Origin: a virus
Taxonomy: Duplodnaviria; Heunggongvirae; Uroviricota; Caudoviricetes
IMG/VR virus record: IMGVR_UViG_2531839448_000005
Coordinates: 1-54,367 of that record
DNA length: 54,367 nucleotides
Direction: 5' to 3' (one strand)
This document shows, piece after piece, positions 25,876-53,476 of the stretch. Each line of letters opens with the position of its first letter. Position 1 is the stretch's first letter. The position numbers and the translations under genes were made by a program. The notes below the pieces were generated by a model. The model was not told the origin of the DNA and did no database searches. It worked only from the letters and a program-made list of their open reading frames with translations.

Positions 25876-27999
25876 TTAATCTTCTGCCTCAGGCTGGAAC
25901 ATCAGCACGTAAAAAACATGCTGCTTCCCCCCAATTTTGCCGAGCGCCTTTTTCTTGTAACGGCGATCGTTACCCGCTTCCAGCATTCCGGCAGCACTCA
26001 ACGCGCGGGCAAAGTGAGACGGATTAAATCCCTGTGCTATCTCACCCTCAAATACATGCGGGAACGTGTAAAAACGGAACTCGTCATCTTCGTTTCTGAT
26101 ACTCCCCTTTCTGTATCCGGCAAGTTCTTTAATCGATAAATCACGCTCGTCGGTATTGGGCCACGGAAGGTATCTGCTGAATCCGAACGACGCTAAAAAA
26201 GCTTCTGCCTGTTCAACCATCTGTTTAAATTCCCTGTTACCCGTGCCGAACTCCTTCACCCAGGCATTAAAATTATGCTGTATGGCATCGCGGCATTCCT
26301 GCTCATCCCAGCCAGTAACATGACCTGAAAGCACAAGCGCGGCCTCCAGTATGGCAAATCGCTCCCCCACACGGTGAACCTGTTCGCCGTAGCTCTCCGG
26401 TATCAGGTTGCGCCACCGCTCACGGCATGTCCTTACCGTGTCCTTTGCCTCCTGCTGGTGTTCTGCCAGCCATTTAACCCACTCACGACCCGCCGCCCCG
26501 TGATTTTCTGTCCAGGCATCCTTTAACGCGTCTGCGTGCGCCTTTCCGGTGCTGTATTCGTGAAATTGCGTGGCTTTTTCCATCGGAACGTTAAGCAGGC
26601 GGACAAGCTGCCCCGCTTTGACTTTTATCCCCTCCGTTTTGAGGAATGTCTCAACGTCCATTTCTCCGGTGCTGATTGCCACCGTGCGCCAGTGTTTGAT
26701 CTCCCTGTTGCCGCCGTCCTTCGCCCCCTGTAATTTCCCCGAACCGTTAAACAGCGTATAGGCTGACGTGGACACCTCCCGCGCGTTTCCGGCCTGGCCT
26801 ATTTCATCCAGGGGTAAAAGCCCGTCATTGTGTGCCTCTGCTTCGTTGGCGATACCTAACGCTGTGCCGTACCAGGTCAGCCGCTGCGCGTCCGGCTCTC
26901 CCCATAAACTTGATGCGATGTTCTGTGTGGTGGTTTTCCCTGCCGATGACTGTTCGAAAAGATGTACCCCGAAGCCGTCAGCGCCCACCAGCCCGATTAA
27001 TGGTGCGGATAACGATACCGCCACACCCAGCATCATGGACGGATTACCACCAGCCAGCCGCGCAACGGTATCGCGCCAGCCCTCCGCCGTTCCTGCCACG
27101 GAATAGCCATTAACAGCAGCCGTTTTTCCGGTAAACAGGACTGGCTTTTCGCAATCACCAATGACCGAACCGTCCGGCATGATGTACGCGCCAAAATGCC
27201 AGCCCGTTGTTGTGCTTAACTGCCATTCCTCATGGCTTCCGCTTAACTGCATCCAGTCAGCCAGGATAGCCCTGTATTTACCGTTGGTTGTTACGTTCAG
27301 TCCGTGGTCTTTCAGCAACCGCCAGCCGTCACGGTCGCCAATGCCACCGCACGGAACCGCCATTGTGATGACTTCATGGTTTGCTAATTTTTTCCAGCGC
27401 ATCACGCGGTAATGCTCTTTACCGATTGTCCCCGTTCCCAGTAGTTCAAGCGGGGAACATAACCACGTCTCAGGCCGGATAATTTCGCCTGACTGCTTAT
27501 CCACTTTTGGCGTTACCCAGAAAACACCATCGGCGCGACTTTCAACGCGGGGCTTTAATTCATCATCGCCCTGGATTTCTGTGATTTTTTTCTTTAAGGG
27601 CAACACCAGACTTTCCCCGCGCTCGTATTCGTCTTTGAGGCGAGGCAACTGGTCGGATAAATCCGCCGGGCTGATGTCAGTTATCCCCGCGTATTCGTAT
27701 ACGGTCTTCACGCCAGCCACAGCCAGCAACGTGACGATCTGTGTAAGGCTACGTTCAGTGATGTGCCCTGCGCGGTAAACACGCACACACTGACGGCTAT
27801 CATCAATAATTTGATAACCGGTAATATCTTTCAGGTGTTCATCTGACAGAACGACAGGCGGCACATTGTCGGCGGCAATATGCTTACCTGCCCATTCCTG
27901 CCACTCTTTCGCATGGCTCCACGCATCACTACCCGCAAAGATGATAACCTCCGTCATTTTGTCGGCTGGCTGGTGCTTTAAGTTTGGTGCGCGCTTCAT
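25876..27999 (-). CDS. primase / replication protein (P4 alpha-like, DUF927-type)
   Basis: 707 aa; central Walker-like GEPDAQ...SSAGKTT region; adjacent iterons. Confidence 0.6.
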   Translation of the reverse strand: MKRAPNLKHQPADKMTEVIIFAGSDAWSHAKEWQEWAGKHIAADNVPPVVLSDEHLKDITGYQIIDDSRQCVRVYRAGHITERSLTQIVTLLAVAGVKTVYEYAGITDISPADLSDQLPRLKDEYERGESLVLPLKKKITEIQGDDELKPRVESRADGVFWVTPKVDKQSGEIIRPETWLCSPLELLGTGTIGKEHYRVMRWKKLANHEVITMAVPCGGIGDRDGWRLLKDHGLNVTTNGKYRAILADWMQLSGSHEEWQLSTTTGWHFGAYIMPDGSVIGDCEKPVLFTGKTAAVNGYSVAGTAEGWRDTVARLAGGNPSMMLGVAVSLSAPLIGLVGADGFGVHLFEQSSAGKTTTQNIASSLWGEPDAQRLTWYGTALGIANEAEAHNDGLLPLDEIGQAGNAREVSTSAYTLFNGSGKLQGAKDGGNREIKHWRTVAISTGEMDVETFLKTEGIKVKAGQLVRLLNVPMEKATQFHEYSTGKAHADALKDAWTENHGAAGREWVKWLAEHQQEAKDTVRTCRERWRNLIPESYGEQVHRVGERFAILEAALVLSGHVTGWDEQECRDAIQHNFNAWVKEFGTGNREFKQMVEQAEAFLASFGFSRYLPWPNTDERDLSIKELAGYRKGSIRNEDDEFRFYTFPHVFEGEIAQGFNPSHFARALSAAGMLEAGNDRRYKKKALGKIGGKQHVFYVLMFQPEAED

Positions 28000-37419: not shown

Positions 37420-37494
<75 letters not shown>

Positions 37495-37497
37495 ATA

Positions 37498-37573
<76 letters not shown>

Positions 37574-37575
37574 AC

Positions 37576-37652
37576 TGGACCGCCACCGGGGACTCGAACC
37601 TCGCACACTCAACTTAAAGGGTTGACGCTCTTTCCTGATGAGCTAGTGGCGG
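37576..37652 (-). tRNA. tRNA-like, anticodon loop CCUUUAA (putative UUU/Lys, non-canonical C33)
   Basis: 77 nt; 7 bp acceptor stem, TTCGAGT T-loop, CCA end; one mismatch in the T stem. Confidence 0.45.
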
Positions 37653-37653
37653 C

Positions 37654-37729
37654 TGGTGGCCCTTGCTGGATTTGAACCAGCGACCTGGCGATTATGAGTC
37701 GCTCGCTCTCACCACTGAGCTAAAGGGCC
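37654..37729 (-). tRNA. tRNA-Ile2/Met (anticodon CAU), ileX/ileZ-like
   Basis: 76 nt cloverleaf, anticodon loop CUCAUAA, close to E. coli ileX as recalled. Confidence 0.8.
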
Positions 37730-41142: not shown

Positions 41143-41298
41143 TTACTCCTCAGGTTCGTAAGCTGTGAAGACAGCGACCTCCGTCTGGCCGGTTCGGATT
41201 CGTACCTCGCAGAGGTCTTTCCTCGTTACCAGTACCGTCACTATGACGGTTAAACAGATGACGATCAGGGCGATTAACATCGCCTTTTGCTGCTTCAT
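41143..41298 (-). CDS. hokD: Hok/Gef-family type I toxin
   Basis: MKQQKAMLIALIVICLTVIVTVLVTRKDLCEVRIRTGQTEVAVFTAYEPEE, near-identical to HokD/RelF as recalled. Confidence 0.85.
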   Translation of the reverse strand: MKQQKAMLIALIVICLTVIVTVLVTRKDLCEVRIRTGQTEVAVFTAYEPEE

Positions 41299-41558
41299 AG
41301 CCTGCTTCTCCTTGCCTTTCGGCACGTAAGAGGCTAACCTACATTTGTGAGACATAGATTGGGCCTCAGATTAATGTTAAGCGTCTTGCAGGACGCGTAA
41401 TGTTAACTGGGGCTTTTCTCTATCTGCCTTTTGGTGTTCATGCCCGAGGCAGATAGCCTCAAGCACCCGCAGCAATTCTACTTAACTCTCCTTTTCCCGC
41501 AAACCGTTTTTGCTCACCATGATAAGTCGTTATTGTAATTAATTGACATAACGATTAG

Positions 41559-44963: not shown

Positions 44964-45374
44964 CTACTGAAAATTCCCCTGATAAAACGACAATATGCGC
45001 TGCATAACTTCGCTCTTCCGGCACTCGCGACAGATTATGTTTAGGCGACTGTCGTAGCGACGTATTTCTCCGTCAGGTAATGACCAGATAAGGTCCGGAT
45101 CAACCACAACCGGTTTCTTCAGCTTTGCCCTCGATAATTTTTTGCGGGCATTTTGCCAGTCCTTACGAGCCTGTTCAGACGGAAATAACCCGTAACCAGA
45201 GTTGTATACATCGCCACTAGCAACCAGCTCTCTGGCAAGAACGCTCATCAGATATCTTGTCGCACCTGTTTTGACTTCCAGTTGCCGTAACGTCTCACGC
45301 CCACTCTGGCGTACGAGTTCAACAACCTGCCCTTTAATTTTTTCTCGCTCTTCTTGTGTAAAAACTTTTGCCAC
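44964..45374 (-). CDS. hypothetical protein
   Basis: 136 aa ORF downstream of the replication gene. Confidence 0.4.
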   Translation of the reverse strand: MAKVFTQEEREKIKGQVVELVRQSGRETLRQLEVKTGATRYLMSVLARELVASGDVYNSGYGLFPSEQARKDWQNARKKLSRAKLKKPVVVDPDLIWSLPDGEIRRYDSRLNIICRECRKSEVMQRILSFYQGNFQ

Positions 45375-45414
45375 AAGTCCTCCTGAAAATTACCTCATGA
45401 CCAGAAATTAACAC

Positions 45415-46497
45415 TTACCCCCTGAAGCCCGGTGGAATTTCGGTATCCGGTTCAGAAATATGATTCACACAACGCTGGTTGTTCGTGCCGCTTACCGGGA
45501 GCAGCCAGGGGTTTTCAAAATTCCGGTCCGGTCCAAAAAACGTCGTCGCTCGCTGAACAAATTCCGTTCCCGTTTTCCCGGTAGCCGCAAGGTATCTTGC
45601 GTAACGCCTCACGCCATCCAGCATGGCCTCTGGTGACACCCCCTCGCGTAATCTGGCCTTCCAAGCACTGAAAGCGGATTTCTTCGGGTTTGCCCCAGCA
45701 CGCAACGGGTATTCCCGCCAGACCTGTTCGAACACATCCGGATAATCCACTCGTCCCACAGGCTGCCCGGTGTTTTCCGGGACTACCCGATCGGCTTCCC
45801 GCTGAATGGCGGAATCGGCTTCAGGCTGCTGCAGTTGGTGTGATTGCTCCGGCCTTGCGGTCATCACCTGCTGCACAGCGCCCGAATCGGCTTTCAGCGC
45901 ATACGCTGAATCGGCTTCCGGTGTCGTGCCTGCTGGCTGACCAAGATTGACGGTCTGAACATCCCCTGCCTGGTTCGTGGCGTTTTTTACGCCATGGACC
46001 ATAGTGTTTTGATCTTCTTGATCTGTATCTGTATCTTTATCTGTATCTTTATCTGTCGTGACTCGTCGTGACATGTGCGTGACATTTCGTGACGCGCCGT
46101 GACAATCGCCATTTTGTTCCCGCTTTCTTTCCCTCTCTCGCTGCGCCCTCTTGCGCTCTGCAGGAGATTTTGCGGTTTGCGAAATATTGCCGTTGTCCTC
46201 TTTAAGCACCTGGCGTTTTTCCCATCCAGTGATTAAATCACCATCAAGTACCCGCCCCTGCATCGTCTGCAAAATTGAATCAATTACCTCTTCTGTCACG
46301 TCGAGCGCACTTGCCAAATCTTCTGTCGTGACATCAATGTGACCTCGCGTGACATTTCGTGACGCGCTCACCAGGAGGTGGATATACACTGCCATCACTG
46401 TTGCAATTGGCTGCCCTGACACCCTGGCAATTGTTCGCCACTTAGGGTCATTTGGCATGTCATGCCATAATCTGAGCCAGGCGTTAGCCATACTCAC
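45415..46497 (-). CDS. replication initiation protein (lambda O-like role) with internal iterons
   Basis: 360 aa; acidic DKDTDKDTDTD linker encoded by tandem repeats; GTGAC iterons inside the gene. Confidence 0.5.
   Translation of the reverse strand: MSMANAWLRLWHDMPNDPKWRTIARVSGQPIATVMAVYIHLLVSASRNVTRGHIDVTTEDLASALDVTEEVIDSILQTMQGRVLDGDLITGWEKRQVLKEDNGNISQTAKSPAERKRAQRERERKREQNGDCHGASRNVTHMSRRVTTDKDTDKDTDTDQEDQNTMVHGVKNATNQAGDVQTVNLGQPAGTTPEADSAYALKADSGAVQQVMTARPEQSHQLQQPEADSAIQREADRVVPENTGQPVGRVDYPDVFEQVWREYPLRAGANPKKSAFSAWKARLREGVSPEAMLDGVRRYARYLAATGKTGTEFVQRATTFFGPDRNFENPWLLPVSGTNNQRCVNHISEPDTEIPPGFRG
46010..46110. repeat. tandem ATCTGT and CGTGAC repeats (candidate prophage ori iterons)
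   Basis: 4-5 ATCTGT(ATCTTT) units then five CGTGAC units within the replication gene. Confidence 0.5.
46320..46370. repeat. second group of CGTGAC repeats
   Basis: three further GTGAC units about 250 bp from the first group. Confidence 0.45.
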
Positions 46498-47318: not shown

Positions 47319-47738
47319 ATGGTTCATGAAGATAAAGCGCGTAAAGAGTTCGCCAGTAGGCTTGCGCTAGCCTGTGAAAACGCTGGTTATGAACAACATG
47401 GAAGGCAGGCAGAAATTGCCCGTCGAATGAAATTAACACCAAAAGCGGTTAGCAAATGGTTTAATGGCGAAACAATTCCTCGCCGGGAGAAATTAAGGGA
47501 ATTAGCAACACTAATAGGAACAACACCAACCTATCTTTTGGGAGAGGATACAGAAGAAAGTGGACAGGTACGTTTCTATCAGGAGTTAAATCCAAGACAA
47601 AAAATCATCATTGACCTTCTGGACGAGCTCCCTGACAGTGAGACAGATGAACTTTTAAAAACTCTTGAAGAGAAAAAACAGAAGTACAATGCAATTTACG
47701 AAGAGTTAGCACGAAAGAAAAAACAAAAAGCCTCTTAA
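47319..47738 (+). CDS. prophage repressor (HTH, RacR-like)
   Basis: 139 aa; HTH ARRMKLTPKAVSKWFNGE; divergent from the cro-like gene. Confidence 0.6.
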   Translation: MVHEDKARKEFASRLALACENAGYEQHGRQAEIARRMKLTPKAVSKWFNGETIPRREKLRELATLIGTTPTYLLGEDTEESGQVRFYQELNPRQKIIIDLLDELPDSETDELLKTLEEKKQKYNAIYEELARKKKQKAS

Positions 47739-48569: not shown

Positions 48570-49130
48570 TAGCTAACCAACGAAGCTAAGGTTGGTAATT
48601 AAGGAGTTCTCCACGGGTGAGGTGGAGTGCGTGCGCCGGACACGGGTGAGCATCCGGCACTGACAGTTTACTGAAAGGATATTTCCATGAAAAGTCAGAC
48701 CATAACGCGAAAGCGCACGGCGAGGTAGCTGGTTCATAGATAGCCTGTCGTTAAATTTTCGTCGGCCGTGCGCTTCCGGTTGTGGCACTCCGCGAAATGG
48801 CGCGGCGGTAAGTATGGCGGGGTTATTCCTTCCCCGTTGAGGACACCTGGTTGTCAGGTTGACCATACGCTTAAGTGACAACCCCGCTGCAACGCCCTCT
48901 GTTATCAATTTTCTGGTGACGTTTGGCGGTATCAGTTTTACTCCGTGACTGCTCTGCCGCCCTTTTTAAAGTGAATTTTGTGATGCGGTGAATGCGGCTA
49001 AGCGCACGCGGAACAGTTAAAACCAAAAACAGTGTTATGGGTGGATTCTCTGTATCCGGCGTTAATTGTTAACTGGTTAACGTCACCTGGAGGCACCAGG
49101 CACCGCATCACAAAACTCATTGTTGAGGGC
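48570..49130 (+). other. about 560 bp structured non-coding region (several hairpins, long-range inverted repeat)
   Basis: hairpins CCAACgaagctaagGTTGG and GCCGGAcacgggtgagcaTCCGGC; 9 bp GCGCACGGC/GCCGTGCGC pair; 15 bp inverted repeat TTTTGTGATGCGGTG / CACCGCATCACAAAA. Confidence 0.3.
48930..48966 (+). terminator. candidate terminator inside the non-coding region
   Basis: GGCGG...CCGCC stem followed by CTTTTT. Confidence 0.3.
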
Positions 49131-53386: not shown

Positions 53387-53476
53387 TGGCGGAGAGAGGG
53401 GGATTTGAACCCCCGGTGGAGTTGCCCCCACTCCGGTTTTCGAGACCGGTCCGTTCAGCCGCTCCGGCATCTCTCC
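53387..53476 (-). tRNA. serU: tRNA-Ser (anticodon CGA)
   Basis: 90 nt with long variable arm, anticodon loop CUCGAAA, CCA encoded. Confidence 0.85.

Follow-up and report, generated by a model that had tools for sequence, protein, structure and literature searches.

What are two kinds of short tandem repeat doing inside the replication initiator gene of a prophage? The question is raised by a stretch of 54,367 nucleotides of viral DNA (IMG/VR record IMGVR_UViG_2531839448_000005; this whole stretch is referred to below as the window), in which a minus-strand open reading frame (ORF) of 1083 nt at 45415-46497 contains a cluster of CGTGAC hexamers and an adjoining ATCTGT/ATCTTT run. Along its full length the ORF matches phrog_3729 ("replication initiation protein", E = 3e-256), and its relatives are named "phage replisome organizer" by NCBI. 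As delimited here it encodes 360 aa from a GTG at 46497; the true start is likely the ATG at 46491, giving 358 aa, as in the RefSeq annotation. Our analysis, which rests on sequence comparison and structure prediction, indicates that the repeat region is most probably (we would put the probability at roughly 0.8) the vegetative replication origin of a lambdoid-type prophage, lying within the coding sequence of its own initiator.

On the + strand, CGTGAC (GTCACG on the gene strand) occurs at 46057, 46067, 46078, 46088 and 46098, with spacings of 10, 11, 10 and 10 bp. These five units make up array B (46057-46103, minus strand), the proposed origin-proximal iterons, which code for the start of a linker (residues 132-147). 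Approximately 260 bp away, array A (46327-46363, minus strand) consists of four units phased at 10-11 bp, namely exact copies at 46327, 46348 and 46358 and, third in gene order, a degenerate one (GTCACA; TGTGAC on the + strand at 46338) that fills the 10-bp register. A lone inverted unit lies between the arrays at 46295-46300 (GTCACG on the + strand; codons 66-68). It stands 26 bp away from array A's last unit and takes part in the inverted-repeat pairs I4 and I7. Altogether, 9 exact copies fall within 307 bp, where shuffled sequence predicts 0.13 (Poisson P(>=9) = 3e-14). The window-wide total of 29 is unremarkable (23.6 +/- 5.2 expected, with 18 of 100 shuffles reaching 29), so that the signal resides in the clustering, and no further GTCACG array was found elsewhere in the 54-kb window. 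Tandem Repeats Finder placed the ATCTGT/ATCTTT hexamers at 46021-46056 (period 6, 6.0 copies); on the gene strand they run ACAGAT AAAGAT and so on, and are translated as the acidic stretch TDKDTDKDTDTD. Together with GATC-containing flanks they form an AT-rich tract (46010-46056, minus strand; encoding TDKDTDKDTDTDQED), which we propose as the DNA unwinding element. Directly beyond it is an inverted repeat at 45971-46001, a 13-pair imperfect stem with the perfect core TGGCGT-5 nt-ACGCCA.

These repeats had been pointed out in an earlier note made from the letters of this DNA, and the present anatomy amends it in several respects. The note counted four to five ATCTGT/ATCTTT units in the ORF where there are six, and its figure of at least eight CGTGAC units is borne out (9 exact copies), not as a single run but as two separated arrays and an inverted unit. 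Its description of the repeats as encoding an acidic linker applies to the hexamers and fails for the arrays, whose translations are CHGASRNVTHMSRRVTT in array B and ASRNVTRGHIDVTT in array A. The region that it delimited, 46010-46370, encloses the repeats and leaves the inverted repeat just outside.

The reading frames of the GTCACG units indicate at which level the repeats are maintained. From IMG/VR we took 80 near-identical loci and from genomes of Gamma- and Betaproteobacteria 52 diverse ones, to which phages of Pseudomonas and Aeromonas were added. In the window, GTCACG is read as C-H-G, A-S-R or V-T, and across the family frames 0/1/2 are used 30/27/31 times in array B and 48/24/18 times in array A, and the units lie either 10 bp (89 cases) or 11 bp (25 cases) apart. 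Since a peptide repeat would use one frame, the use of all three marks GTCACG as a DNA signal. The arrays are thus helically phased direct repeats conserved as DNA regardless of frame, as in iteron-type origins. The contrary proposal, that the repeats have no function as DNA, being instead repeats of the peptide or neutral duplications that the linker tolerates, with the hexamers serving as a low-complexity acidic spacer, draws on the (D-K/T)n reading of the tract in 40 of 51 relatives, on the possible usefulness of an acidic or charged linker in itself (the acidic linker of DnaT docks on PriB; PMC13377028) and on a similarity between arrays A and B sufficient for an old duplication. It is largely refuted by the three frames, by spacing at the helical repeat and by the joint change of motif in both arrays described below, and GTCACG is kept down to ~50% protein identity although the encoded peptides differ. 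The AGATA motif of the tract is likewise read D-K in 40 of 51 loci and in other frames in 7 lineages. We consider this proposal the least credible of those weighed here.

Across 51 diverse relatives both arrays stay in place, and in diverged lineages the motif changes in the two at once. At an N-terminal identity of at least 65%, every relative (at least 23 genomes) keeps GTCACG arrays at about +134..165 and +394..435, counted from the start codon. Array B comprises 2-5 units in these relatives, and many also have the inverted unit at +197. The same layout is found in Pseudomonas and Aeromonas phages. In more diverged loci both places carry another motif, GTAACG in five (L105, L108, L113, L115 and L124) and CGAACG/GAACGC in ten (L110, L111, L114, L116, L119, L120, L121, L125, L129 and L131). 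When the periodic 5-mer of array B was identified de novo, it recurred at least twice in array A of the same locus in 39 of 50 loci, compared with 12% across groups. When the domains are aligned, variability is highest in the loop that array A encodes, whose lineage-specific insertions resemble added units. Two loci, L123 (a Serratia metagenome-assembled genome (MAG)) and L133 (Pantoea sp.), share the N-terminal domain and differ in the downstream region; they have CTACGTAG-type repeats at the place of array B, and neither array A nor a purine tract.

Which component of the prophage the motif belongs to can be read from a relative in E. coli O157:H7 86-24 (L137, gene 2499-3590), in which the C-terminal half of the window's initiator is joined to an unrelated N-terminal domain (E = 0.7 in BLASTP). 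Here AAGGGGCTT occurs three times within the N-terminal coding region and three times further on, and a (GAACAG)n tract comes next. The adjacent YdaT-like and DUF977 proteins differ little from the window's (91% and 93% identity), and the motif therefore follows the N-terminal domain of the initiator rather than the neighbours or the host. In initiators of this type the (GAACAG)n tract is read as QEQEQE, and in one of them (L139, phage PhiR5_2, gene 2501-3583) the two-array AAGGGGCTT layout has its second array inverted. The N-terminal domain with GTCACG arrays, for its part, has no fixed partner: it is combined with a primase-helicase, with a DnaC-like or a P-like protein, or with none of these.

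These comparisons bear directly on whether another protein binds the repeats, be it one encoded nearby (the YdaT/CII-like activator, DUF977, the repressor or Cro) or a host factor, as would be the case at an activator-dependent promoter within the gene. Lambda CII recognises direct repeats of 10-bp period, which makes a CII-like reader of the arrays conceivable, and on the + strand part of array B falls within a weak promoter-like match (46079-46106). Such matches are not enriched, however: in a promoter and terminator scan, which was of use only in pointing to the inverted repeat, the counts equalled the shuffled expectation (2 promoter-like matches vs 2.1 expected). The repeats of L137 are entirely different despite its near-identical YdaT-like and DUF977 genes, a Pseudomonas phage keeps the GTCACG arrays beside different neighbour genes, and a host factor is made less likely by the different motifs found among prophages that share one host. 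Recognition by a protein other than the initiator is thus very improbable.

The sequences next to array B would suit a site of unwinding. Over 51 loci, the tract that directly follows array B has a mean AT fraction of 0.74 and a purine fraction of 0.84 on the gene strand, in genes with a mean GC content of 0.54. In the window its GC content is 0.32, and it contains the least stable 40-bp duplex of the ORF (nearest-neighbour energy -43.7 vs a mean of -57.2 kcal/mol, z = 3.6). The inverted repeat at 45971-46001, folded as single-stranded DNA, reaches -8.7 kcal/mol (z = -2.8). Within 100 nt past the tract, a perfect stem of at least 6 bp is present in 44% of loci and 13% of control windows taken from the same genes (Mann-Whitney P = 1e-7), and GC-rich stems in 27% and 6%, respectively (Fisher P = 6e-5). 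No DnaA box with up to one mismatch was detected in or near the initiator gene, and Rfam reported no RNA family in the repeat region. At the distal edge of the AT tract there are two GATC (Dam) sites, at 46011-46014 and 46020-46023 and 9 bp apart; GATC is present in the tract of many enterobacterial relatives and not in that of the Pseudomonas relative, and the pair may matter for SeqA or methylation control.

The same order of elements is known from lambda, where the arrangement is a functional origin (PMC7466680, PMC3349717). The lambda record places four iterons, repeats bound by the N-terminal part of the initiator, at +348..+432 of gene O; a purine-rich AT tract comes next, and beyond it an inverted repeat (12+4+12). 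The window matches this architecture of phased repeats within an initiator gene, AT tract and inverted repeat: its origin would lie midway along the initiator gene, the direct repeats precede, in the direction of transcription, a tract with a purine-rich coding strand, an inverted repeat comes last, and the relative position is nearly the same (+394..440 here). Iteron number varies in both systems, from 4 in lambda to 6 in Shiga toxin (Stx) phages (PMC7466680) and from 2 to 5 in array B, and in both the N-terminal domain and the origin move as a single mosaic module. The two differ in that the units of the window are 10-11 bp long with a 6-bp non-palindromic core, as compared to 18-19 bp in lambda; in that a second array and an inverted unit lie in the region coding for the DNA-binding domain here and not in lambda; and in that the P-type loader gene that follows the initiator in lambda is missing from this prophage. 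The earlier note's suggestion of a lambda-style origin embedded in its initiator gene is accordingly supported by the reading frames, positional conservation, co-variation and the lambda-matching order and position, whereas its term "O-like" is apt by position and analogy only. Homology to lambda O was sought and rejected, as no Pfam family was found, comparison of the N-terminal profile with lambda O by hhalign gave a probability of 0.05% (E = 0.82) and O was not among the Foldseek matches in BFVD.

In SPP1, gp38 (G38P) binds direct repeats inside gene 38 (oriL), beside an AT-rich unwinding element (PMC6316719). In both systems direct repeats, with an AT-rich element adjoining, lie in the gene of the origin-binding protein, a role that is presumed for the window's initiator. 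The present family also bears the name "replisome organizer", with a sub-threshold, near-full-length match to PF09681 and fold-level matches to replisome organizer and DnaD proteins (see below). Direct homology to G38P was not upheld by hhalign profile comparison. SPP1 also encodes the loader gp39 and the helicase gp40, neither of which is found in the window prophage, and its second origin is 13 kb away, in contrast to arrays 260 bp apart within one gene.

A role of the arrays as initiator-binding sites mainly for autoregulation or copy control, by transcriptional roadblock or handcuffing and with the true origin elsewhere, has some features in its favour. Array A and the inverted unit lie early in the gene, in its 5' third, and a protein bound there would obstruct transcription; lambda manages without two separated arrays, and some relatives have array B alone or neither array. 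This account is nonetheless unlikely, given that array B never occurs without an adjoining AT-rich, strand-asymmetric tract, and often has an inverted repeat as well, which is the signature of an origin and not of an operator, that the 54-kb window offers no other GTCACG array and that the geometry fits the functional origin of lambda. The two roles are in any case compatible.

If the region is the origin, the AT tract is also its most changeable part. In 81 full-length near-identical alleles, the 450 nt before the tract and the 594 nt after it are constant in length, and all length polymorphism is carried by the hexamers (4-9 units), with ORFs of 356, 358, 360, 362 and 366 aa corresponding to 4, 5, 6, 7 and 9 hexamers. 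Five hexamers are the commonest state, and the window carries the rarer six. An independent sample spread over complete E. coli genomes, in which only 12 records match at >=99% identity, agreed with this: a length of 195 bp was dominant, with 185, 189, 201 and 207 bp also present. The number of array B units varies over deeper divergence only; four-unit alleles among close relatives, considered as candidates for unit loss, proved to be due to point substitutions. Repeat number is thus not invariant across relatives, and the slippage that the earlier note had anticipated finds support in the hexamer tract. Its 6/12-bp tandem repeat is perfect and falls within a disordered linker, so that units would be gained and lost in frame by slippage. 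The tract also marks a boundary between modules: partial matches end at window positions 46010-46034, so that it forms the junction of a module comprising the N-terminal domain, arrays and tract with varied C-terminal modules. Further into the disordered linker, at 45790-45921, there are four copies of AATCGGCTTC (GAAGCCGATT on the gene strand, read E-A-D-S), arranged as two 36-nt direct repeats 96 bp apart. They share one reading frame and were probably duplicated at the peptide level.

The initiator was modelled with AlphaFold2. The model has a confident N-terminal helical domain (residues 5-92) with a helix-turn-helix and a hairpin (helices 2-16, 18-27, 31-47, 58-65 and 69-79, hairpin 80-90; high per-residue confidence score (pLDDT)), a basic helix (112-128), a disordered linker (129-248) and a confident C-terminal helical domain (250-335). 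Array A codes for a low-pLDDT loop of the N-terminal domain (residues 45-57), and array B and the hexamers encode residues 132-160 at the start of the disordered linker. The N-terminal domain (residues 1-92; 46222-46497, minus strand) is winged-helix-like and presumed to bind the origin, as judged from the model, Foldseek and a sub-threshold match to PF09681. No Pfam family matched the ORF at E <= 0.01, and Foldseek against the PDB returned nothing significant, with weak resemblances to MarR/CRP winged helices (E > 1). Against predicted viral structures (BFVD) it returned phage replication proteins (E = 5e-7), a "replisome organizer" (E = 2.7e-3, target-normalised TM-score 0.55) and a phage DnaD (E = 8e-3). 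PF09681, the N-terminal domain of phage replisome organizers of the SPP1 G38P type, remained below threshold (E = 0.036, 14.5 bits vs a cut-off of 23.3) while covering profile positions 1-104 of 121, and 9 of 27 family members match it at E <= 1; phrog_4880 and phrog_5968, both "replisome organizer", match at E = 4e-7 and 1e-4. The basic helix (ERKRAQRERERKREQ; 46114-46164, minus strand) is encoded between the N-terminal domain and array B, and its R/K pattern is conserved. The C-terminal helical domain (45493-45750, minus strand; phrog_1701/26426/270) is a separate mosaic module that also occurs in initiators with an unrelated N-terminal domain, and is presumed to interact with host or partner proteins.

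The protein ends in a tail, ISEPDTEIPPGFRG (45418-45459, minus strand), that is near-identical to the C-terminal tail of E. coli DnaT (primosomal protein I). Residues 337-360 match positions 156-179 of the NCBIfam DnaT model (E = 0.0015), phmmer against PDB entries 6aep/2ru8/9zbt finds the same tail (E = 0.0014), and between SEPDTEIPPGFRG and SEPDNHIPPGFRG of DnaT 11 of the last 13 residues are identical; the motif SEPDxxIPPGFRG is present. The near-identity spans the last 13-14 residues. The genuine DNA-binding domain of DnaT, a three-helix bundle (PF17948), is found in sister initiators that share the N-terminal domain and the arrays (E = 1e-17 in L138). The window's C-terminal helical domain, by contrast, has no significant similarity to the C-terminal domain of DnaT, and the N-terminal domain of DnaT is absent. 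An apparent homology to the DnaT C-terminal domain (E = 3e-8) was discarded because it came from a profile that mixed two C-terminal types; both the profile of the window-type C-terminus and the single sequence match the terminal peptide of DnaT only, hhalign against the PF17948-type relatives gave a probability of 0.08%, and the window protein has no PF17948 match. The last 63 nt of the gene are ~89-92% identical in DNA to the 3' ends of otherwise different initiators (HannyBb, mEp460), which are annotated "phage O protein family" or "replication initiation O-like". On this sequence pattern the tail may be a portable host-docking peptide. In DnaT itself, the C-terminal domain forms filaments on single-stranded DNA (ssDNA) at the site of helicase loading (PMC13377028).

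Taken together, we infer the following sequence of binding, looping, melting and helicase recruitment. Upon derepression, an early rightward-type promoter would transcribe the gene and the initiator would be made. Its N-terminal winged-helix-like domain would bind the GTCACG units of array B, whose spacing of one helical turn would align monomers on one face of the DNA; the co-variation of the motif between the arrays, and its link to this domain and not to the neighbouring genes, support such binding indirectly. The initiator would probably also bind array A and the inverted unit, ~230-260 bp upstream, giving a wrapped or looped nucleoprotein complex. Torsional stress would then open the adjoining 47-bp AT-rich, strand-asymmetric hexamer tract, with the inverted repeat bounding it on the far side. 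The C-terminal domain and DnaT-like tail would recruit the host helicase machinery, since the prophage itself encodes neither a helicase nor a loader. Over evolutionary time, the tract would double as a recombination joint between a module of DNA-binding domain plus origin and a partner-recruiting module.

A more elaborate version of this mechanism, which we regard as doubtful in its entirety, would make the origin bipartite and partly self-encoding. The initiator would bridge arrays A and B and wrap the ~260 bp between them, and its tail would plug into the host DnaT/PriA primosome or DnaB-DnaC. Array A would lie in a loop of the very domain that reads it, such that gain or loss of an iteron would insert or delete loop residues; loop insertions at the position of array A are seen in L085, L105, L117 and L124. 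The sister initiators would use their true DnaT ssDNA-binding domain likewise, as an origin-specific entry to the helicase loading of replication restart.

Several observations weigh against an origin in this gene. The same N-terminal domain occurs without array A or without both arrays in six relatives, with array B only in L118 and arrays weak or absent in L109, L112, L122, L126 and L128, and in-gene arrays are therefore not obligatory for this domain. The specific core is 6 bp in a 10-11-bp unit, as opposed to the 17-22 bp of classical iterons. No helicase or loader gene follows the initiator here, where the next gene is DUF977, which leaves the helicase-loading step unexplained. The RefSeq twin of the prophage (L136) is annotated with frameshifted integrase and tail tape-measure genes (1-36 and 26896-27946), by which this copy may be inactive or decaying. 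In the literature searched on replisome organizers, in-gene origins, replication of non-lambdoid Stx phages and the phages Tritos and Evi, no description of the origin was found, and the Eru papers on non-lambdoid Stx phages do not discuss origins or iterons. Finally, a search of 72,556 plasmids identified none with the module as sole replicon, the only matches being records of 150 kb-4.9 Mb with prophage-like DNA.

The prophage setting is lambdoid in type. The initiator is preceded by a DicA/CI-like repressor (47319-47738, +), a Cro-like helix-turn-helix gene and a YdaT/CII-like gene, and the element is integrated beside a tRNA-Ser gene. An identical copy is present in E. coli CV839-06 (the RefSeq twin, NZ_CP025753.1). 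In the window (44964-45415 and downstream) and in the sequenced phage Tritos, which has the same layout, the initiator directly abuts DUF977, and in L137 (525-2492) and L139 (511-2494) a DnaC/IstB-like ATPase gene and a DUF1627 gene lie between the two. Relatives sharing the C-terminal half have a DnaC/IstB-like gene downstream, and a P-like gene is found in one that has the N-terminal half in common; the direct layout of the window is either a deletion or a loader-less variant. Elsewhere in the window, Rfam identified a sok antitoxin RNA at 41293-41468 (-), beside hokD in the RefSeq twin, and the DicF small RNA at 48911-48962 (+), upstream of dicB; sok and DicF/dicB are features of Qin-like prophages. 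A cluster of four tRNA genes at 37423-37729 (-; Gly, Thr, Lys and Ile in the RefSeq twin) lies upstream of the lysis genes, and a further tRNA gene (Ser) at 53390-53476 (-), at the prophage end beside the integrase, is a likely attachment site.

An origin inside the gene of its own initiator is a textbook principle, and the element described here is of this ordinary kind, in a very widespread and uncharacterised family of initiators. Among complete E. coli genomes some match was present in 2535 of 5426 (47%) and a full-length match in 1647 of 5426 (~30%), and relatives are found in prophages and phages across Gamma- and Betaproteobacteria. The lambda-like layout is familiar as such and, in the literature searched, undescribed for this very common E. 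coli prophage family, in which the gene is usually annotated as "hypothetical protein" or "replisome organizer" with the origin unmarked; what is unusual here is the second array within the region coding for the DNA-binding domain and a DnaT-type tail in a prophage without a loader. Recognising the origin would allow its precise annotation, and would explain why a single tract of 36-54 bp holds both the mosaic junction and every length difference of the gene. Studies of initiator-iteron co-evolution could draw on the natural variants in specificity (GTCACG, GTAACG, CGAACG and AAGGGGCTT), and the combination of loader-less layout and DnaT-type tail provides a lead on how such prophages may recruit the host helicase.

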